64,000 nucleotides of DNA from assembly GCA_964487475.1 (NCBI GenBank), contig CAZAPM010000012.1:2031-66030 (forward strand), written 5' to 3'. Both the position numbers and the translations under genes were made by a program. The notes under the pieces were generated by a model. It ran no database searches and had not been told where the DNA came from. It worked only from the letters and a program-made list of their open reading frames with translations. The first letter of the stretch is position 1. Every line of letters starts with the position of its first letter. Shown here one piece after another: positions 26,165 through 54,596 of this stretch. This stretch comes from an uncultured Planctomycetales bacterium. GTDB taxonomy: Bacteria; Omnitrophota; Gorgyraeia; Gygaellales; Profunditerraquicolaceae.

Positions 26165-27757
26165 TTATTTCCCGTTCAGTATCTTTTCCGCCTCCTTGCG
26201 ATACGCATCCATGACGTAGGGGATACCGCTTATCTCCTCCGCCTCTCTCGTCAGGGTCATCAGGTCCCGGCGGGAGATGGTGGTTAGATTGAAGTTGCGG
26301 GACCCGGCCATCAACTGCTGCAGCCCGACCTTGATGCGCTGGCTGAAGGTGTAAATACCGATGGCTCCCATGGGCATGGTCTCTATCTCTTTGCCGTACT
26401 TCTCCGCCAGCTCTTCATAGCAGACGAAGATCTCCTCGGGCTTCACGCCGTATTCGGCGATCTGCGGCGGGAGGTTGTTGTTCTTGATCCACTCGCCTAT
26501 GTTCTTGCCCACGAAGCCCGGGATCATCAACGCCCGGCCCATGCACACCGCCTTGACGTACGGTGCGCCCATGGCGATCGCCTTGAAGATATGGTCCTCG
26601 AGCGCGAAACCGCCGGCGATGGCGATATCCGGGACGCGGACCTTCTTGGCGCGCAGCTTCTCGCAGAATTCGTAGGTGAGCGCCTGCAGATAGAACGTAG
26701 GCGTGCCCCACTCCTGCATCATCCTCCACGGGCTCATGCCGGTGCCGCCCGGAGCTCCGTCGATGGTCAGCAGGTCGACTTTGGCCTCGGCGGAGAACCG
26801 CAGGGCCTGCGCCAGCTCCACCATCGAATACGCGCCGGTCTTCAGGGTGATGCGCTTGAACCCGAGATCGCGCAGCCGCTTGATCTCCTTCATGAACCCG
26901 TCCTCAGAGACGAAGCCTAACCGGGAGTGGCGCTCGAATTCCTTGATGGCGCCGGCCTTATACGCCTCCTGGTTCGCTTTCAGGGTGGGATCGGGAGTGA
27001 CGATGTACCCGCGCTTCTTGAGTTCCAGCGCGCGGTCCAGGGTCTTGACCTTGATCTCGCCGCCGATGCACTTGGCGCCCTGGCCCCACTTCAGTTCGAT
27101 GGTATCCAGTTTATGCTTCTTGCGCACGTACTCCGCCACGCCTAAACGGGTATCCTCTACGTTCATCTGCACCAGGATCTCGCCGTAGCCGTCGTGATAG
27201 CGCTTGTAGACCTCGATGCGGCGGTCCATATCCGGGGCATTGACGATCTTGCCCTTGGCATCGAGCTCGAGCTTGGGATCGATACCGCAGACGTTCTCGC
27301 CGCAGACCAGGGTGATGCCGGAGATCGCCGTACCCACCGCAAAATGCTCCCAGTTCTTGCGGGCGATCTCGGTCGACCCCAGGGCGCCTGTGAACATAGG
27401 CACCTTCATCTTGACCTTCTTATCCCACCCGTACTCGGTCTCGGTGTTCACCGCGGGGAAGATCGCGGTATCCGGCCCGCCCTCCACACCCTTAGGCAGC
27501 CCTTTGGCCCCGGCCGCATATCCCTGGATGTTCAGGTGGGAATAATCGACCGGATAATCCTTGTCCGCGCCGGCGGTCATTTCGCCGAAGGGGCCGGGAT
27601 AGATCACCTCCCTGCCTCTGAAGGAAGACTTGAACACCTCGCAGTTTCCCCGGCAGCTTTCCAGACAGCGGGAACAAAGACCGGAACAAGGGACGACGTT
27701 TTTCGACCTGTTGAAGGTCCGGCTGGCATCGTTGCCGCCCGGTGAGCGCAAATTCAT
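26165..27757 (-). CDS. Glutamate synthase-family protein (archaeal-type FMN-binding GltB domain with N-terminal Cys cluster)
   Basis: 530 aa; CSGLCSRCLESCRGNC Fe-S-like cluster; FMN-domain motif TIDGAPGGTGMSP. Confidence 0.75.
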   Translation of the reverse strand: MNLRSPGGNDASRTFNRSKNVVPCSGLCSRCLESCRGNCEVFKSSFRGREVIYPGPFGEMTAGADKDYPVDYSHLNIQGYAAGAKGLPKGVEGGPDTAIFPAVNTETEYGWDKKVKMKVPMFTGALGSTEIARKNWEHFAVGTAISGITLVCGENVCGIDPKLELDAKGKIVNAPDMDRRIEVYKRYHDGYGEILVQMNVEDTRLGVAEYVRKKHKLDTIELKWGQGAKCIGGEIKVKTLDRALELKKRGYIVTPDPTLKANQEAYKAGAIKEFERHSRLGFVSEDGFMKEIKRLRDLGFKRITLKTGAYSMVELAQALRFSAEAKVDLLTIDGAPGGTGMSPWRMMQEWGTPTFYLQALTYEFCEKLRAKKVRVPDIAIAGGFALEDHIFKAIAMGAPYVKAVCMGRALMIPGFVGKNIGEWIKNNNLPPQIAEYGVKPEEIFVCYEELAEKYGKEIETMPMGAIGIYTFSQRIKVGLQQLMAGSRNFNLTTISRRDLMTLTREAEEISGIPYVMDAYRKEAEKILNGK

Positions 27758-27825: not shown

Positions 27826-27915
27826 AAAAAAAAAGACAAAAACGACCCAGCCCACAGGGACGTCTTTGTCCAAATCGGTAATTTTCAGCATAACACAAAG
27901 CCTTACGCTGTCAAA
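27826..27915 (-). promoter_or_regulatory. Leader of the gltB-domain gene: sigma70-like promoter (TTGACA-N16-TATGCT) followed by a 10-bp-stem hairpin plus U9 (attenuator-like), then a palindrome ATACATGCATAGTATGTAT before the RBS
   Basis: Minus-strand reading: TTGACAGCGTAAGGCTTTGTGTTATGCT…GACAAAGACGTCCCTGTGGGCTGGGTCGTTTTTGTCTTTTTTTTT…AAGGAGGAGTGGTATG. Confidence 0.5.
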
Positions 27916-38427: not shown

Positions 38428-38805
38428 TTACACTTTGAATGAGTCCGGATCGATCCCCAGCTTCTTGATTTTTGCGCGGATGGTATTGCGGTTTAACCCA
38501 AGGATTTTAGCGGCTTTAAGCTGGTTTCCCTCGGTACGCTCCAGCACAGACTCAATAATGGGTTTTTCCAGTATCTCTAAAAGAGATTTATATAATACAC
38601 CCTTTTTTTCATCGTACAAGTTATTTTCCAGCTCGCGGATGGATCGGGAAATGCTGCCGCCCGCGTCAGCGGAGGGCTTCTTCATCACATGCACGACGCC
38701 TTCCTGGCGGGCATCCTCCTGCATGCAGAACCCCTGCCGCTCCAGCACCTGCGCGATGATCTCTTTGACCCGCCTGTCCTCTTCCGTGATCCGCAATGTC
38801 ACCAT
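38428..38805 (-). CDS. Small Fis-family (HTH_8) DNA-binding protein, a stand-alone NtrC-C-terminus-like HTH
   Basis: 125 aa; C-terminal LERTEGNQLKAAKILGLNRNTIRAKIKKLGI is a Fis/NtrC-type HTH. No sigma54 AAA+ or receiver domain. The 20-nt gap to gltB suggests co-transcription. Confidence 0.6.
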   Translation of the reverse strand: MVTLRITEEDRRVKEIIAQVLERQGFCMQEDARQEGVVHVMKKPSADAGGSISRSIRELENNLYDEKKGVLYKSLLEILEKPIIESVLERTEGNQLKAAKILGLNRNTIRAKIKKLGIDPDSFKV

Positions 38806-38924
38806 CGTGATTAATTTTTATGCAACGCACCGTTAAAAAAAAGCGCCCAAGAAAAGGCCTCTCCCCTTGAACGCCGGCGTTCATGCAACCAATCACGCGG
38901 TACGGCACTGTACCCCGCCATATA

Positions 38925-38954
38925 TACAAGTAAAAAAAAGCCGCGGGTGGTAAC
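38925..38954 (-). promoter_or_regulatory. Site D of the conserved bipartite motif GTTACCA-N14-TTACTTGTA, upstream of the Fis-like-gltBD operon
   Basis: Plus strand reads TACAAGTAA-N14-TGGTAAC. The GTTACCA half lies in the 3' arm of the glnN terminator stem. Confidence 0.6.
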
Positions 38955-38977
38955 ACCTAAGTGTTACTACCCGCGGC
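38932..38977 (-). terminator. Rho-independent terminator of glnN (17-bp stem with one mismatch, TTAG loop, T8)
   Basis: Minus strand: GCCGCGGGTAGTAACAC-TTAG-GTGTTACCACCCGCGGC-TTTTTTTT, starting 18 nt after the glnN stop. Confidence 0.75.
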
Positions 38978-38994
38978 TTGAGGTACCGCGCGGA

Positions 38995-41183
38995 TTACTT
39001 GATAAAAAGCATCTCCCGGTACTTCGGCAGATCCCAATGCTCGTCGGAGACCACGGCCTCGAGCGCATCCACGTGCTTGCGGATGTGCGCCATCAGAGGC
39101 TTGAGCTCCTCAAAATAGAGCATCGCCCGCTCCTCGCCTTCCATCTTGGCCGCCTTTTCCAGGAGCTTGACCATCTCCTTGGCGTTACGGCGGACGTAGA
39201 AGACCATGGAGACCACCTCGCTCAAGTGGTTCTTCAGGTCCTCGAAGGCCTTGGTATCCACCTTGACCGCCGATTTCTTGAGCGCGGCGATCGCGCCCAC
39301 GTTATCCGCCAGCATCTTCTGGTATTCCAGGCCGGCCGGAACCACGCTGGCGTTGACCATCTCGTGCAGGGTATTGGCCTCGATCTCGAGCAGGAGGCAG
39401 TACGTATGCACCCAGATATGGAAACGCGCCAGCACCTCCTCCTTGGTGAACACCTTATATTTCTCGAAGAGCGCGACGTTCGCCGGCTTCTTCAGGGCCT
39501 CGAGCGCTTCCACGGCGGAGGCGACGTTCGGCAGCCCCCGTTTCTTGGCTTCTTTAACCCACTCTTCCGAATAGTTATTGCCCTCGAAACGGATCGCCTT
39601 GTGCTCCTTGTAGAGCCTGGCCACCACCTTGAGCACCGCGGCGTTGAAATCCCCCTTCGCCGCCTCTTTTTTGATCTCGGAGGCCACGTAATCCAGGGAT
39701 TCCGCGATGATGGTATTGATCACGGTCAGAGGTGTAGCGATGTTCTGGGAGGACCCCACGGCGCGGAACTCGAACTTGTTGCCGGTAAAGGCAAACGGCG
39801 AAGTGCGGTTGCGGTCGGTGGTATCCTTATTGAATTTCGGCAGCCGGCCTACGCCCACGTCATACACTTCCTGGCCGGACATCTTCTCTTTCACGCCCTT
39901 CTCGATGGCATCCACGATCTTGACCAGCTGATCGCCCAGGAAGACGCTTACGATCGCCGGAGGCGCTTCGTTGGCGCCCAGGCGGTGCTCGTTGCCGGCG
40001 GTCGCCACGGCCGCGCGCAACAGGTCCGCATGCAGGTGCACGGCACGCAGCACCGCTGCCAGCACTGCCAGGAACTGCAGGTTATCCGCGGGAGTTTCCC
40101 CGGGATTAAGCAGGTTATTGCCCTTATCGTCCGCCATGGCCCAGTTCACGTGCTTGCCGCTTCCGTTGATCCCGGCAAAGGGCTTCTCGTGCAGCAGGCA
40201 GACCAGGTTATGGCGCAACGCCACCTTCTTCATGATCTCCATGAGCATCTGGTTATGGTCGGTGGCCAGGTTCGACTCCTCGAAGATCGGCGCGAACTCA
40301 TACTGGTGCGGCGCCACTTCGTTATGCCGGGTCACTACCGGGATCCCCAGCTTATACGCTTCTTCCGCCACTTCGAACATATAATTGAGCACCCGCTCCT
40401 TGATGGACCCGAAATACTGGTCTTCCATCTGCTGGCCCTTAGGGGACGGAGCACCCACGAGGGTGCGGCCGGCCATCACCAGGTCCTGGCGCAGGTTGTA
40501 ATAGTTCTTATCGATCAGGAAATACTCCTGTTCCGGGCCGCAGGTAGAGATGACCTTTTTCACGTCATGCCCGAACATCCTGAGCAGATTGCACGCCGCC
40601 TTGCTCACCGCTTCGTCGGAACGCAGCAAAGGCAGTTTCTGGTCCAGCGCCTCGCCGTGATAGGCGATGAAGATGGTGGGGATACAAAGGGTCTTGCCCA
40701 GCTTGGCCTCGGTGATGAACGCGGGGCTGGAAGGGTCCCACGCCGTATACCCGCGGGCTTCGAAGGTCGCGCGGATACCGCCCGAAGGGAAAGAGCTGGC
40801 ATCGGGCTCGCCCTGGATGAGCTTCGATCCGGAGAACTTCTCGATGACCTTGCCCGGGCCGGTGATGGAGATGAACCCGTCGTGCTTCTCGGCGGTCAAG
40901 CCGGTCATGGGCTGGAACCAGTGGGTATAAAAAGTGGCTCCCTTGGCCATCGCCCATTCCTTCATGGCATTGGCGATCTCGTTCGCCTGTTCCAGGGAGA
41001 TGGTCTTGCCTTCGTTGAGCCACATCTTAAAGGCTTCAAAGGTCTCCTTGGAGATATGCTTTTGCATGGTCTCCATGCTGAAGGTGTTCTCCCCGAAATA
41101 GGAAGAGACCTTTTTGGGAGACTCGACTTTCTTCAGATCGACACTATTGATCTTGAACAACGCTTCATGACGGATACCCATTG
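38995..41183 (-). CDS. glnN: Glutamine synthetase type III
   Basis: ~729 aa from MGIRHEALFKIN… (RBS AAGGAGG 6 nt upstream; the ORF track extends it to 41313). GSIII-specific N-terminal domain plus GS catalytic domain (TFYTHWFQPMTGLTAEKHD…). Confidence 0.88.
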
Positions 41184-41348
41184 CTTCCTCCTTGACTGGT
41201 TTCTCTAATTGGACCATTTTACCACATCCCGGAACCGGCGCACACAAAAAAAAGACGTCCGCAGGCAAAACCGCTCTGCCTCGAACGCCGCTGTTCGCTG
41301 CTAAATCACGCACCCCTCAGTGCCTAAAAATCGACCACCCACATAAAG

Positions 41349-41378
41349 TACAAGTAAAACTGCAGACTTATTGGTAAC
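41349..41378 (-). promoter_or_regulatory. Site A of the conserved bipartite motif GTTACCA-N14-TTACTTGTA, 166 nt upstream of glnN
   Basis: Plus strand: tacaagtaa aactgcagacttat tggtaac. Confidence 0.6.
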
Positions 41379-41421
41379 CCGGAAAGAACTTCACCCGGCA
41401 TCCCGATAAGCCGAGGTGAAA

Positions 41422-41763
41422 CTATCCAATAGCCTGCGAACCCCGCTCTTCGGTACGGATACGCACGCACTCCTTCAAGTCCAGGATGAATATCTTCCCG
41501 TCCCCGGTCTCCCCGGTCTTGGCGCCCTTGATGATCGCCTTGACCGTCGGCTCCACGAAGTTATCGTTGACCGCGATCTCGAGCCTGACCTTGCGCAGCA
41601 GATTCCCGGATTCCCGGGCCCCGCGGTACACTTCGGTCACTCCCTTCTGCCGGCCGTGCCCCAGCACCTCGGAGACGGTGATCAGATGCACATCCGCCTT
41701 ATACAACTCCTCTTTGACCTCTTCCAGCTTGTACGGCTGGATTATCGCGATGATCAGCTTCAT
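41422..41763 (-). CDS. glnK: Nitrogen regulatory protein P-II (GlnK-type, downstream of amt)
   Basis: 113 aa; [20 protein letters not shown]…; T-loop [17 protein letters not shown] with Tyr51. Confidence 0.92.
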
Positions 41764-41788
41764 AGTGTCCCCTTTCGCAAATGCAGGA

Positions 41789-43030
41789 TCATTCCACCAG
41801 GGTATACGCCCGCTCCCGGTGCTGGGTCAGGTCCAACCCCATCAGCTCGTCCTTGACGCTGATGCGCACCTTCATGAACACATCCACCAGCTTGTAAAGG
41901 ATATAGGTGACCGCCATGGTATAGAGGCCGCATACCGCCACGGCAAAAAGCTGCACCAGCAGCAATTTGGGGTTTCCTGACAACAACCCGTCCGCTCCGG
42001 CAGCATTCACGGCCTTGGTCGCAAAGAGCCCCGTCAGAAGCGTTCCCAGTACGCCGCCGACACCGTGCACGCCGAAGGCGTCCAGGGAATCGTCATATCC
42101 GAATTTTGGCTTGATCAGCGCCACGGCGATAAAACAAAGCACGCTGGCGATGATCCCGATCACGATGGCGGAAAAAGGCGTCACGAACCCTGCGCCCGGA
42201 GTGATCGTAGCCAGGCCCGCGATACAGCCCGTGGCCGTGCCGAACATGGTCGGCTTGCCGTTTCTGATCCACTCCAGAAGCGCCCAGGACAAACCGGCTG
42301 CGGCAGCCGCAGTATTGGTGGTCATGAACGCGTTCGCCGCGACGCCGTTGGCAGCCAAGGCGCTTCCGGCATTGAACCCGAACCACCCGAACCACAACAG
42401 GCCGGTGCCCAACACCACCAGCGGAAGGTTATGCGGAGAAGGAACGTTATGTTCGATGTTCTTCCTCTTGCCGATCACCACGGTCGTGACCAGCGCCGCG
42501 ATACCCGCGGTAGTATGCACCACCAACCCGCCGGCAAAATCCAGCACTCCCAACTTACGCAGCCATCCGCCCATTCCCCACACCCAGTGGCATACCGGAG
42601 CGTAGACGAACGTCACCCACAAAAGCGTGAACACCAGGAACGCGGAGAACTTCATCCGCTCCGCGAACGCGCCGATGATCAATGCGGGGGTGATCACCGC
42701 GAACATCGCCTGGAACATGATGAACGCCTGGTGCGGGATACCCGGCGCATAATCCGCGTAAGGCTCCAAACCGATGCCGCGCATCCCCACCCAGGAAAAC
42801 CCTCCCCAGAACCCCTCGCCGGGGGCAAAAGCCAGGCTGTAACCGAACACCACCCAGCAGACGCTGACCAGGCACATGGCCACAAAACACTGCATCAGCA
42901 CGTTGAGGATATTCTTGCGCCGCACCATACCCCCGTAAAAGAACGCCAGACCCGGGGTCATCAGCATGACCATCGCTGCAGACATCAATACAAACGCCGT
43001 ATCGCCCGCGCTTATACCTATATTCTCCAT
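41789..43030 (-). CDS. amt: Ammonium transporter (Amt family), no signal peptide
   Basis: ~413 aa from [16 protein letters not shown] (RBS GGGAGG; the ORF track extends it to 43159). Amt signature motifs (DFAGG, FGFNAGS). Confidence 0.9.
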
Positions 43031-43074
43031 TCCCGCCTCCCTTACTTGCTTTCTGCACACACCCCGGCTTAAAG

Positions 43075-43136
43075 CACCCCGTCTTAATCGGATTGACGGG
43101 TACCCCGCATGTGCGGGGGTCTGCCGGGTGTGTTGC
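43075..43136. repeat. Dual-hairpin element copy (loop TTAATCGGATTG, then ccccgc-atgt-gcgggg) in the amt1 5' leader
   Basis: caccccgtcTTAATCGGATTgacgggtaccccgcatgtgcgggggtctgccgggtgtgttg; ~85% identical to 25021-25082. Confidence 0.7.
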
Positions 43137-43146
43137 TTGCTGCAAC

Positions 43147-43198
43147 AAAAAACGTTCATCCCCCCCGGATGGTCCGGAGAGGATGAACGCCATTGTTC
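43147..43198 (-). terminator. Strong intrinsic terminator in the amt1 leader, with an overlapping GAAC-AATGGC-GTTC hexaloop hairpin (alternative structure)
   Basis: Minus strand: AGAACAATGGC GTTCATCC TCTCCGGACCATCCGGGGG GGATGAAC GTTTTTT. The upstream small hairpin (stem GAAC/GTTC) shares its GTTC with the terminator's 5' arm. Confidence 0.65.
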
Positions 43199-43204
43199 TT
43201 TTAG

Positions 43205-43234
43205 TACAAGTAAATCGGAGGAGCGTTTGGTAAC
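43205..43234 (-). promoter_or_regulatory. Site B of the conserved bipartite motif GTTACCA-N14-TTACTTGTA, 175 nt upstream of amt1
   Basis: Plus strand: tacaagtaa atcggaggagcgtt tggtaac. The GGGTTAC half also forms an inverted repeat, GTAACCC-TTGCT-GGGTTAC. Confidence 0.6.
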
Positions 43235-43316
43235 CCAGCAAGGGTTACACTCGGCATTAGTACTTCAGCTTATAGCACCCGGCCTAATCGGATCGGCCGG
43301 TGCTAAGCCCTCCTGC

Positions 43317-43658
43317 TTAGCCGATCGCCGTGCTACCGGTCTCCTCGGTACGGATGCGCACGCACTCCTTTAGATCCAGGATGAAGATCTTCCCGTCGCC
43401 GGTCTCCCCGGTCTTGGCGCCGCGGATGATCGCCTTGACCGTCGGCTCCACGAAGTTGTCGTTGACCGCGATCTCGAGCCTGACCTTGCGCAGCAGGTTG
43501 CCGGATTCCCGGGCCCCGCGGTACACTTCGGTCACTCCCTTCTGCCGGCCGTGCCCCAGCACCTCGGAGACCGTGATCAGGTTGACTTCCGACTTGTACA
43601 GCTCCTCTTTTACCTCTTCCAGCTTATACGGCTGGATTATCGCGATGATAAGTTTCAT
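43317..43658 (-). CDS. glnK: Nitrogen regulatory protein P-II, second copy (6 aa differences from the first)
   Basis: 113 aa; near-identical to 41422..41763 at both protein and DNA level. Confidence 0.92.
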
Positions 43659-43672
43659 GAGTATCCTCCTTA

Positions 43673-45007
43673 TTATTCCAGCAGGGTGTATGAACGTTCG
43701 TGGTGCTGCGTCAAATCCAGGCCCATGAGCTCCTCTTTCTCGCTCACGCGCGCGCCCAGGACCAGATCCACCACCTTATAGATCACGAAGGTGACCACGC
43801 CCGCGTACACCGCGGTGATCCCCACTGCCGCCGCCTGGATCAGGAGCTGCTGCGGATTGCCGAAGAAAAGGCCGTCCGCGCCCGCGGCGTTCACCGCTTT
43901 CGAAGCGAAGAGGCCGGTCGCCAGCGCGCCCCAGATGCCGCCGACGCAGTGCACGCCAAAAGCGTCCAAAGCATCGTCATACCCGAACTTGGGCTTGAGG
44001 TAGCTTACCGCAAAGTAGCAGAGGAAGCTGACCGCGAACCCGATGATGACCGCCGGGACGACACTCACAAATCCCGCCGCAGGAGTGATCGCGACCAACC
44101 CGGCCACCACACCCGAGACCACGCCGAAAAGCGTAGGCTTGCCGTTCTTGATCCATTCGATCAGCGCCCAGCTCAAGCCTGCCGCTGCGGCCGCGGTATT
44201 GGTCACCACGAACGCATTGACCGCCAGGCCGTTCGCGGAAAGCGAGCTTCCGGCGTTAAAGCCGAACCACCCGAACCACAACAACGCGGTTCCCAGCGCC
44301 ACAAAGGGAAGGTTATGCGGAGCGGGAACGTTCTTATCGAGATTCTTCCTCTTTCCGATCACGATCGCCGTCACCAGCGCCGCGATACCGGCATTGATAT
44401 GCACCACGGTCCCTCCGGCAAAATCCAGCGCGCCCATCTTACGCAGGAATCCGCCGACCGCCCATACCCAGTGGCACACCGGAGAGTACACGAAGGTCGC
44501 CCAGAGCAAGGTGAACACCAAAAACGAAGAAAATTTCATCCTCTCCGCGAACGCGCCGATGATCAACGCCGGCGTGATGATCGCGAACATCGCCTGGAAG
44601 ATCATGAACGCCTGATGCGGGACAGTCGCGGAGTAATCGGCGTACGGCTCAAGGCCAACACCGTTCAGACCCGCCCACCCCAACCCTCCCCAGAAACCGT
44701 CTCCCGGCTTAAAGGAAAGGCTGTACCCGAAAAGCACCCAGAACACGCTCATCACGCACAGGATGATAAAACACTGCATCAGGACGCTTAACATGTTCTT
44801 CTTTCGCACCATGCCTCCGTAAAAGAACGCCAGACCCGGGGTCATGATCATGACCAACGCCGAGGAGATCAGGACCCAGGCCGTATCCCCGGTATCCGCC
44901 ACGGGCGCTGCCGCGACATCCTGCGCCCACGCCGGAACCACCAGTGCCATCACTCCCAGCAAGAGCAGAAGCCCTGCCGGTACTGCTTTACGCAACCACG
45001 TGCTCAT
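43673..45007 (-). CDS. amt: Ammonium transporter (Amt family) with cleavable N-terminal signal peptide
   Basis: ~444 aa from [30 protein letters not shown] (RBS AAGGAGG; the ORF track extends it to 45151). ~75% identical to Amt1. Confidence 0.9.
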
Positions 45008-45037: not shown

Positions 45038-45090
45038 AAAAAAGACGCCTTCCATCCTCTCTCTGAGGATCAAAGACGTCTGCGTCTTTC
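45038..45090 (-). terminator. Nested-hairpin intrinsic terminator in the amt2 leader
   Basis: Minus strand: AAAGACGCAGACGTCTTT…AGACGTC-TTTG-ATCCTC-AGAGA-GAGGAT-GGAA-GGCGTCT-TTTTTT. Confidence 0.55.
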
Positions 45091-45181
45091 TGCCTAAAAC
45101 AAAATGGGCGCCCGCTGCTATCGCGAACGCCTTTGTATTCTTTGCACACATCCCCGTGTGCCGTGCTGCCTGCTACAGTAC

Positions 45182-45211
45182 TACAAGTAAATTACGGACA
45201 ACCCTGGTAAC
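45182..45211 (-). promoter_or_regulatory. Site C of the conserved bipartite motif GTTACCA-N14-TTACTTGTA, 175 nt upstream of amt2 (overlaps the sigma gene stop)
   Basis: Plus strand: tacaagtaa attacggacaaccc tggtaac. Confidence 0.6.
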
Positions 45212-45752
45212 ACCCCGCATCCAAATGGGTGCGGCACTTCTCCTGCATGGTCTTGCGCAGCTTCACCACCCGCACGTGGGAGACCCCCAGACGGCTTCCG
45301 ATCTCCCGCACGGTCAGTCCGGAAAGGCTTAAACGGAACACCTGCTTCTCCCTGTCCGTAAGGCCGTTATTATTGATCGCCTCGATGATCAGGGACGCAT
45401 TCACCGTATCGAATGCGCTGGGGACGGTCTTCTCGGAAAGTATATCCTCCAGGGAGCACTCCGTATCGCCGCTTCCGACACACGCTTCCAGGCTGGTCAG
45501 GGAAGCTTTGTCCATATGCGTGCGCAGAAAATTCTTCAGATGAAAATAGCACCCCTGCAGGATATAGCTCCTGGTCTTGTGCTCCCAGGCGCCCTGCATA
45601 TACCTGTTCCAGAGGAAAAGTACCGCCTCCTGATAGAGGTCCTCGGCCTGCAGCGCAGGCGAACGCGCCTGCATCCCCGCCCGGTAGGAGATCCTCCTGA
45701 GGGTCACCGACACGTCCTTGAGTAAAGTTTCGAATGTGTTCTTCATAATCAA
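45192..45752 (-). CDS. RNA polymerase sigma-70-family factor, ECF-like (regions 2 and 4 only), Cys-rich C-terminus
   Basis: 186 aa; region 2 AEDLYQEAVLFLWNRY; region 4 HTH LTDREKQVFRLSLSGLTVREIGSRLGVSHVRVVKLR. Confidence 0.75.
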   Translation of the reverse strand: MIMKNTFETLLKDVSVTLRRISYRAGMQARSPALQAEDLYQEAVLFLWNRYMQGAWEHKTRSYILQGCYFHLKNFLRTHMDKASLTSLEACVGSGDTECSLEDILSEKTVPSAFDTVNASLIIEAINNNGLTDREKQVFRLSLSGLTVREIGSRLGVSHVRVVKLRKTMQEKCRTHLDAGCYQGCP

Positions 45753-45783
45753 ATAAAAAACGCCCTTCCTCCCGCTGCGCGGG

Positions 45784-45926
45784 AAAAAGGACGCCGTAGT
45801 CCTTACTTAACAAAAAAGGCCCTCCGCAGGCTAAACCTTACATTCGCCCTTGGAAGACCTCATAGTCTTCGCTGATTACAACCCTGTAATCACTCTAGAT
45901 TATAGCATCCCTGGAGAGGATGTCAA
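45784..45926 (-). promoter_or_regulatory. Consensus sigma70 promoter (TTGACA-N16-TATAAT) overlapping the nadE stop, with a +1 palindromic operator TGATTACA-GGGT-TGTAATCA, followed by a ~140-nt leader with three hairpins (two with U-tracts) before the sigma gene
   Basis: Minus strand: GCTTGACATCCTCTCCAGGGATGCTATAATCTAGAGTGATTACAGGGTTGTAATCAGC GAAGAC-TATGAG-GTCTTC … GGCC-TTTTTT … AGGAC-TACGGC-GTCCT-TTTTT-CCCGC-GCA-GCGGG AGGAAGGGCG-N12-ATG. Confidence 0.6.
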
Positions 45927-53873: not shown

Positions 53874-54596
53874 TTAATGCCGCTTGCCCTTGATCTCGCG
53901 GGCCATGATCACCGCTTCCGCCACCTCGCGCATGGTCTTGCGGGAATCCATGCTCTGCTTCTGGATGAGACGGAACGCCTCCGCGGAGGAGACATTGGCA
54001 TCCTGCGAGAGTATGTCCTTGGCGCGTTCCACGAGCTTGCGGGTCTCCAGCGCTTCCTCGGCGCTTTGGGCGCGCAGGGAAAGCTCGGCGTTCTCGATGG
54101 CGATCGCGGCCTGGTTGGCCACGGCGGTCAGGATCCCCAGCTCGGGCTTGGTGAACTCCCTTTTCTTCGAAGTATAACAGTTCAGCACCCCGATCACCCG
54201 GCCCTTGACGGACAGAGGCACGCAGGCCAAAGACACCAGCCCTTCCTTCGCGGCGATATCCTGGTTCAGATAACGCGCATCCTTGCGCACATCCGGCACG
54301 CAGATAGCCTTGTTCTCTTTCGCCACCAGACCGGCGATCCCCTCGCCGAGCGGGATATTGGGCTTCTTGTTGTAACGCTCCGAGATCGACTGCGTGGATT
54401 TAACCACCAGCTCCTTGCGCTCCGGGTCCAGCAGCATCAGGGAGCAGATGTTGGAGTTCATGATCTCGGCGGTGATGTGCACCACCAGCCGCAGCAGCTC
54501 CTCCAGGTACAACCCCGAAGTGATGAGGTTGGCGACCTTGGAAAGGGCCTCGATCTGCTTAAAGTAGATCTGATAATGCTTGGTCTGCGCAGGCAT
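53874..54596 (-). CDS. GAF-ANTAR two-domain RNA-binding antitermination regulator
   Basis: 240 aa; N-terminal GAF fold; C-terminal ANTAR helices LETRKLVERAKDILSQDANVSSAEAFRLIQKQSMDSRKTMREVAEAVI (AmiR/NasR-type). Confidence 0.8.
   Translation of the reverse strand: MPAQTKHYQIYFKQIEALSKVANLITSGLYLEELLRLVVHITAEIMNSNICSLMLLDPERKELVVKSTQSISERYNKKPNIPLGEGIAGLVAKENKAICVPDVRKDARYLNQDIAAKEGLVSLACVPLSVKGRVIGVLNCYTSKKREFTKPELGILTAVANQAAIAIENAELSLRAQSAEEALETRKLVERAKDILSQDANVSSAEAFRLIQKQSMDSRKTMREVAEAVIMAREIKGKRH

Follow-up and report, generated by a model that had tools for sequence, protein, structure and literature searches.

The RNA target described for ANTAR-domain proteins consists of two short hairpins whose hexaloops carry an A at position 1 (A1) and a G at position 4 (G4); a terminator overlaps the second of these hairpins (PMC3369931, Ramesh et al. 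2012; PMC8934654, Walshe et al. 2022). Such targets have been reported in many bacteria upstream of genes for PII, ammonium transporters, glutamate synthase, and glutamine synthetase (PMC3369931). In the eut leaders recognized by EutV, a linker of 5-12 nt between the two hairpins is needed, and linkers of 3, 14, or +20 nt abolish the action of the protein (PMC3369931, PMC8934654). Here, a 64-kb stretch of DNA from an uncultivated bacterium of the phylum Omnitrophota (64,000 nt of contig CAZAPM010000012.1, referred to as the window) was analyzed for a palindrome, GAAC-N6-GTTC, that occurs in the leaders of nitrogen-assimilation genes. With a probability of roughly 0.85, the palindrome is the downstream hairpin (P2) of an ANTAR-type attenuator, which would act in the nascent RNA through antitermination that depends on an ANTAR protein. 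A first-pass annotation, made from the sequence of the window alone, had favored a DNA operator and had suggested an uncharacterized control system. The latter description does not apply: the leaders are built like the ANTAR dual-hexaloop antiterminator already known (PMC3369931), and the window includes a gene for a GAF-ANTAR protein.

All coordinates are those of the window, and all features located in it lie on the minus strand, which carries every gene around the finding. The palindrome was found exactly three times in the 64 kb, each time in a leader and with its RNA sense on the minus strand, at the positions and with the sequences that had been given for it earlier. Three exact matches to GAACNNNGGCGTTC were observed compared to approximately 0.04 expected (an estimate from base composition), and six matches with at most one mismatch compared to 1.37 expected from shuffles. 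Read as RNA, the palindromes are hairpins of 4-5 bp with a hexaloop of the form [A/G]nnGGC. They are CGAAC-AGCGGC-GUUCG in the glnN leader (41282-41297; A1, G4), UGAAC-GCCGGC-GUUCA in the fis-gltBD leader (38868-38883; G1, G4), and GAAC-AAUGGC-GUUC in the amt1 leader (43185-43198; A1, G4). An upstream hairpin, P1, was identified in the glnN leader (GCAC-UGAGGG-GUGC at 41310-41323; U1, G4), where a linker of 13 nt leads to P2, and in the fis-gltBD leader (GGUAC-AGUGCC-GUACC at 38899-38914; A1, G4), where the linker is 17 nt. The amt1 hairpin is the sole one in its leader: it begins 8 nt past a promoter-like motif described below, and no P1 was found between that motif and P2. Approximately 100 nt upstream, a hexaloop hairpin with A1 and G4 (GCUAAGC-AGGAGG-GCUUAGC at 43299-43322) extends across the stop codon of PII_b, the second PII gene, and it was not counted as an amt1 P1. 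A dual-hairpin regular expression that restricted loop position 1 to A or G recovered a single leader of the window, that of fis, and missed the glnN leader because its P1 loop begins with U; a covariance model was more useful.

In every leader, a strong intrinsic terminator opens its 5' arm with the GGC of the loop and the GUUC arm, for which GAAC is the competing partner, so that P2 and the terminator are mutually exclusive. This sharing had been recognized earlier in the amt1 leader, and it holds for all of the leaders. The leader terminators have stems of 9-19 bp and, directly after the stem, U-rich tails (U6-U8, or UUUUGUUUU in the case of amt2 terminator 1). Those overlapped by the three palindromes and the amt2 half-site all start with GGCGUUC or GGCGUCC, and they ranked highest among the terminator-like sites of the 20-kb region that was scanned. 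For example, the glnN terminator (41246-41289) overlaps the loop and the 3' arm of P2, and its 5' arm GGCGUUCG pairs with CGGACGUC ahead of U8. The 5' arms of the fis-gltBD terminator (38835-38875; 15 pairs, then U8) and the amt1 terminator (43147-43191; 19 pairs, then U6) both open with GGCGUUC. In the minimum-free-energy folds, P1 and the terminator form while P2 does not; the predicted default is therefore termination, and the GAAC/GUUC hairpin would win only if it is stabilized.

The amt2 leader retains the right half of the palindrome, as had been reported, in the form of AAAGGCGTTCG at 45125-45135. The half-site belongs to the leader rather than the coding sequence because the true start of amt2 (43673-45007) is the ATG at 45007, which has a Shine-Dalgarno sequence (AAAGGAGG) upstream and begins a signal peptide; the start of the longest open reading frame at 45151 is a mis-start. 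A coding origin of the half-site, in the open reading frame from 45151, was ruled out by the start at 45007 and by the conservation of tandem attenuators in the related loci L001 and L035. The 144 nt between 45151 and 45007 contain two attenuator modules. The first module (45125-45161) combines a P1 (GCACAC-GGGGAU-GUGUGC at 45144-45161) with a degenerate P2 (AUAC-AAAGGC-GUUC at 45125-45140) and is followed by terminator 1 (45096-45131), where GGCGUUCGC pairs with GCGGGCGCC before the U-rich tail. The second module (45038-45089) has the hairpin AAAGAC-GCAGAC-GUCUUU (45072-45089), which overlaps terminator 2 (45038-45081, then U6).

Related modules were found in two other leaders of the window. 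The leader of a sigma factor gene located upstream of amt2 includes a first module with P1 (GAUUAC-AGGGUU-GUAAUC at 45874-45891), P2 (GAAGAC-UAUGAG-GUCUUC at 45853-45870), and terminator 1 (45812-45861), and a second module with GGAC-UACGGC-GUCC (45789-45802) and terminator 2 (45755-45795). Dual tandem hexaloop hairpins are present in the glnN, fis-gltBD, amt2, and sigma leaders. In the leader of a gene that encodes a Glu_synthase domain (26165-27757, 530 aa), a single hairpin, GGAC-AAAGAC-GUCC (27858-27871), overlaps a terminator, the two together spanning 27826-27871. A sigma-70-like promoter (TTGACA/TATGCT) was located at 27887-27914, upstream of this hairpin. Elements of the same type also occur in loci L041 and L047, and in locus L016 the homologous gene comes after a GAF-ANTAR gene.

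The conservation of these leaders was analyzed in 80 loci fetched around homologues of GlnN, the closest of which belong to metagenome-assembled genomes (MAGs) of Candidatus Omnitrophota, with identities of up to 81%. The glnN leaders of about 20 Omnitrophota MAGs share a common order of elements: a promoter-like motif, P1 (GCAC-[A/G]nnGnA-GUGC), a linker, P2 (GAAC-AnnG[G/A][C/U]-GUUC), and a terminator. A covariance model of P1, linker, and P2 was built from 24 instances; when the related loci (840 kb) were searched with it, 42 matches were returned, 41 of which were on the sense strand, with 28 strong orthologous matches. The matches were located upstream of glnN (19 matches), fis-gltB, amt-PII, the GAF-ANTAR gene of L016, and the sigma gene of L001, and across these genes the unit of P1, linker, P2, and terminator occurs in more than 20 Omnitrophota MAGs. 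Within the window, the model also recovered the amt1 leader (P2 only), the amt2 and sigma leaders, and the module at 27858-27871. G4 is invariant in all aligned P1 and P2 loops, A1 is found in approximately 39 of 40 aligned P2 loops, and position 1 of the P1 loop is either A or G. The linkers between P1 and P2 range from 3 to 25 nt (once 52 nt) in the orthologues.

Covariation across orthologous leaders had been proposed in the first-pass annotation as a means to distinguish an RNA site from a DNA site, and it pointed to an RNA site through P1 and the outer pairs of P2. In P1, compensatory changes from GC to AU or the reverse were observed in seven sequences, along with changes between CG and UA and between AU and GC, as well as G·U pairs; 97% of the cells were paired, compared to 2-75% when the partners were slid. 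For P2, a generic scan was performed with no stem sequence fixed, which specified a 4-bp stem and a hexaloop with G4, and required the 3' half of the loop and the 3' arm to be re-paired downstream before a U tract. The scan returned 65 sense and seven antisense matches, with 5-11 matches in shuffles of both strands. The matches included the stem classes GAAC/GUUC (28 matches), AGAC/GUCU (10), GGAC/GUCC (3), and GGAU/GUCC (3). The outer two pairs of P2 covary among these, and the A-U and C-G pairs next to the loop do not vary, in agreement with the sequence conservation reported for the closing pairs in eut leaders (PMC3369931). In the amt leaders, the 5' arm decays to GCAC, AAAC, or AUAC, and AnnGGCGUUC remains intact. 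Such an asymmetry is understandable for an RNA in which the 3' half would have three roles (in loop recognition, as an arm of P2, and as an arm of the terminator), but not for a symmetric operator.

These patterns bear directly on the operator favored in the first-pass annotation, in which GAAC-N6-GTTC would bind a dimeric transcription factor, such as the Fis-type helix-turn-helix (HTH) protein at 38428-38805, and act as a roadblock or repressor site downstream of the promoter. Two observations would suit an operator: the GAAC/GTTC stem is almost invariant across genomes, and one of the regulated operons has a gene for a small HTH_8 protein, which is kept next to glnN and gltB. However, the element is strictly strand-specific in both searches, its conserved center (A1...G4GC) is asymmetric, and it always overlaps the 5' arm of a terminator. 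The 5' half-site decays while the 3' half is unchanged, the G·U variants GGAC/GUUC and GGAU/GUCC retain RNA pairing but lose DNA symmetry, and paralogous modules share their geometry but differ in their stems. An operator appears extremely improbable; based on the covariation in P1 and P2, the decay of the 5' arm, and the strict strand specificity, it is excluded for practical purposes. What stood of the earlier interpretation was its other option, an antiterminator/terminator switch in which GGCGUUC is the 5' arm of the terminator and GAAC competes for it.

A different explanation is that no switch exists, that the terminators are constitutive or the hairpins are pause hairpins, and that the upstream GAAC is an incidental similarity left by duplication of leaders. 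Such an origin would agree with the weakness of P2 (4-5 bp), with its absence from the minimum-free-energy folds, and with the fact that the leaders of one genome could be paralogous copies. It is very unlikely in view of the comparison among genomes, since the GAAC arm, the hexaloop length, and A1/G4 are kept in more than 20 genomes with GlnN proteins of only 75-81% identity, whereas linkers and terminator loops diverge freely. Additionally, the sense-strand excess of hexaloop hairpins that overlap a terminator is roughly tenfold relative to the antisense and shuffled controls, and strong terminators placed before essential nitrogen-assimilation genes need a mechanism of relief.

The glnN and fis leaders also share GCGTGATT, which had been noted near the palindrome as a second conserved box. 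Exactly two copies were found in the window, at 38891-38898 (the GCGUGAUU box in the linker of the fis leader) and 41304-41311 (glnN leader), each 7-8 nt upstream of the GAAC core. While the sharing is real, the box was missing from orthologous linkers and was rejected as a second conserved element. In the minimum-free-energy folds of both leaders, P1 is lengthened at its base by a few pairs in which the box is the 3' strand; this basal extension is weakly supported, with only 50-70% of the cells paired across orthologues. GCGTGATT is regarded as a linker similarity specific to this genome and not as a second regulatory box.

The candidate antiterminator is a GAF-ANTAR protein of 240 aa encoded at 53874-54596, with an ANTAR domain above the cutoff (Pfam accession PF03861, E=1.2e-18) and a GAF_2 domain (E=5e-23). 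The C-terminus has matches among PDB sequences to the ANTAR domains of Rv1626, EutV, and NasR; the GAF domains nearest to that of the protein belong to Nlh1, PtsP, and NifA. In 13 Omnitrophota loci, an orthologue is encoded upstream of glnN at a distance of no more than 6 kb. The GAF-ANTAR genes of related MAGs are flanked by hexaloop/terminator modules (L016 383-435 and 681-694; L022 3002-3724; L006 248-1027). In L022 the gene lies directly upstream of glnN, and in L016 an attenuator module lies upstream of the gene itself, which suggests autoregulation of the GAF-ANTAR protein in that locus.

A mechanism can be proposed in which amt2-glnB, amt1-glnB, glnN, and fis-gltBD would each be transcribed from a promoter-like element, TTACCA-N15-TACTTGTA. 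By default, the leader would fold into the strong intrinsic terminator whose 5' arm contains GGCGUUC, and transcription would end before the gene. When active, the GAF-ANTAR protein would bind the hexaloops, both of P1 where it is present and of P2, GAAC-[A]nnGGC-GUUC. A bound P2 would retain the GGC-GUUC segment, the terminator would not form, and RNA polymerase would read through. Activation would presumably involve a ligand that reports nitrogen status and binds the GAF domain, which resembles the GAF domains of PtsP and NifA, and the genes would probably be switched on under nitrogen limitation.

The same competition between terminator and antiterminator could operate independently of ANTAR, if a small-molecule riboswitch (for example, one for glutamine) or another RNA-binding protein stabilized the GAAC/GUUC antiterminator. 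The competing folds are conserved in sequence, glutamine riboswitches have a similar context of nitrogen genes, and ANTAR binding is itself deduced from sequence. We consider this unlikely, as the conserved part is composed of two 4-bp hairpins with hexaloops and a linker of 3-52 nt, too small and too variable for a ligand pocket. At gathering thresholds, Rfam 15 returned no cis-regulatory family, glutamine riboswitches included, in the window or in nine related loci, and the sole weak match of a permissive search (E up to 5) was bglG-cis-reg at E=1.4, which is at chance level. Moreover, the leaders have just the features by which ANTAR targets are defined, and they are linked to a gene for an ANTAR protein.

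Several observations weigh against an ANTAR-type attenuator. The GAAC/GUUC stem of P2 is nearly invariant within the main class, so the helix alone is uninformative and direct covariation is weak, and no cis-regulatory Rfam family matches the leaders, the remainder of the window, or the nine related loci. Two loops in the window deviate from the consensus, namely fis P2 with G1 and glnN P1 with U1. The linkers in the window and in orthologues often exceed the 5-12 nt that EutV tolerates, and only one hairpin is present in the amt1 leader and in the module at 27858-27871. The host is known only from MAGs, and both the binding of RNA by the ANTAR protein and the read-through are predicted from sequence. 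Finally, the glnN leaders of the Velamenicoccus clade did not match the covariance model, even though a GAF-ANTAR gene adjoins glnN there. Some of these points may be accommodated by the attenuator. The linker limit was defined for EutV only and may be inapplicable to GAF-ANTAR proteins, and the single-hairpin modules fit the revised minimal motif, which is a single hexaloop (PMC8934654). Loci of the Velamenicoccus clade include GGAU-AAAGAC-GUCC/terminator modules elsewhere, and the leader of their glnN may be a different leader RNA. In these glnN leaders (L028 5740-6000, from Candidatus Velamenicoccus archaeovorus, and L026 1-186), in place of the P1/P2 unit, a repeated element of approximately 50 nt, UAACCCAnAAGGGGUAGGCCUCCGC...GCGGAGGGCC, was observed, twice in L028, together with a hairpin (UUCCGCC-AGA-GGCGGAA) beside the Shine-Dalgarno sequence; neither had a match in Rfam.

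The promoter-like motif TTACCA-N15-TACTTGTA was found in 40 copies in the window and the related loci, all 40 on the sense strand and with a spacer of exactly 15 nt. Four of the copies are in the window (38925-38956, 41349-41380, 43205-43236, and 45182-45213) and 36 in related loci, and the loop and 3'-arm motif of the attenuator followed within 130 nt downstream in 37 of the 40. The motif is unlike sigma-54 or consensus sigma-70 promoters, and the copy in the fis leader sits inside the 3' terminator of glnN (38932-38979). It behaves like a promoter and is probably read by the adjacent ECF-type factor of the sigma-70 family (45192-45746; TIGR02937, 51.3 bits compared to a cutoff of 42.9), homologues of which were found in five loci that have the motif. 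The sigma gene itself has a consensus sigma-70 promoter (TTGACA and TATAAT, 12 of 12 matches) at 45899-45926, followed by the two tandem hexaloop/terminator modules (45755-45891), which are kept in the closest relative, L001. This arrangement suggests that the sigma factor is under ANTAR-type attenuation, in a cascade or a feed-forward loop, and we infer a cascade in which the ANTAR protein would gate both the sigma factor and the sigma regulon.

A broader proposal is that these components form a self-contained, two-tier nitrogen circuit that replaces NtrBC and sigma-54 in this clade of Omnitrophota; taken as a whole it is tentative, and we would give it somewhat less than an even chance. In such a circuit, the ECF-type sigma factor may read the rigid TTACCA-N15-TACTTGTA promoters of amt2, amt1, glnN, and fis-gltBD, while the one GAF-ANTAR protein, directly sensing 2-oxoglutarate or glutamine, may gate the sigma leader as well as each sigma-dependent operon. 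The result would be a coherent feed-forward AND gate. This ANTAR subfamily may also read the loop-proximal part of the stem (AC...GU) and accept single hairpins as well as linkers that are long or structured; the known recognition rules of ANTAR proteins would then be wider.

According to Pfam and NCBIfam, the gene order in the direction of transcription is aminotransferase, GAF-ANTAR, F-type ATPase genes, NadE, the ECF-type sigma factor, amt2 and PII, amt1 and PII, glnN, the Fis-type HTH protein, gltB, and gltD. The glnN gene (38995-41181) encodes a type III glutamine synthetase. The attenuated gltBD operon opens with the gene for the Fis-type protein (38428-38805, 125 aa), which is scarcely more than one Fis/NtrC-type HTH_8 domain; more than 20 Omnitrophota loci retain this gene between glnN and gltB. 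Transcription of amt2-PII may continue into amt1 by read-through, because no clear terminator follows the second PII gene (PII_b). Between the amt1 terminator and the ribosome-binding site (43035-43135), a further G+C-rich fold of approximately 100 nt with a three-way junction was predicted (z=-2.7), and it is not obviously conserved in the amt1 leader of L001.

Altogether, a concrete regulator-target pair, the GAF-ANTAR protein and the hexaloop attenuators, is proposed for genes at the core of ammonium assimilation in an uncultivated phylum. The mechanism itself is not new, but the known link between ANTAR proteins and nitrogen metabolism is extended to the Omnitrophota. No GAF-ANTAR protein has a characterized RNA target in the ANTAR literature cited here, and the more than 60 related attenuators, with their variable linkers, single-hairpin forms, and stem classes, could help to define the recognition rules of such proteins. 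The two layers of conserved sequence noticed in the first-pass annotation are real, although they do not represent a new design: a specialized promoter combined with ANTAR attenuation is also found in Klebsiella nasF and in the GnfLM/GnfKR system of Geobacter (PMC2995071).

The eut leaders of Enterococcus faecalis share with the leaders described here the two hexaloop hairpins with A1 and G4, the overlap of the second hairpin with the 5' arm of a terminator, and a regulator with an ANTAR domain, and published ANTAR regulons likewise include genes for PII, ammonium transporters, glutamate synthase, and glutamine synthetase. In contrast to EutV, the candidate regulator has a GAF sensor rather than a phospho-receiver, the linkers are mostly longer, some modules have a single hairpin, the stem sequences GCAC/GUGC and GAAC/GUUC are strongly conserved, and the host belongs to the uncultivated Omnitrophota. 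According to the accounts of Klebsiella oxytoca NasR and nasF (Chai and Stewart 1998, 1999) given in PMC3369931 and PMC7496416, NasR is similarly a one-component protein in which a ligand-sensing domain is fused to ANTAR, and an A1/G4 hexaloop hairpin upstream of the leader terminator adds to the control of a nitrogen-regulated promoter. As described in these two sources, NasR differs in having a NIT sensor for nitrate and nitrite instead of GAF, and in having a single target operon instead of a regulon of several operons. In Geobacter sulfurreducens, nitrogen genes have premature terminators in their leaders, which are relieved by the ANTAR regulator of the GnfK/GnfR pair (Ueki and Lovley 2010, PMC2995071). 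The GnfR site CAGGCAANGGCGCC also has a stem conserved in sequence, an AAnGGC loop similar to the AnnGGC found here, and an overlap with the terminator, and control likewise has two layers, with GnfLM as a dedicated promoter system and GnfKR adding antitermination for a subset of its genes (PMC2995071). The Geobacter regulator, however, is a response regulator phosphorylated by GnfK, and the promoter layer in that species is sigma-54 with GnfM (PMC2995071), whereas TTACCA-N15-TACTTGTA is probably read by an ECF-type sigma factor. The targets of the Geobacter system are the nif genes (PMC2995071), while those in the window are the assimilation genes amt, glnN, and gltBD.

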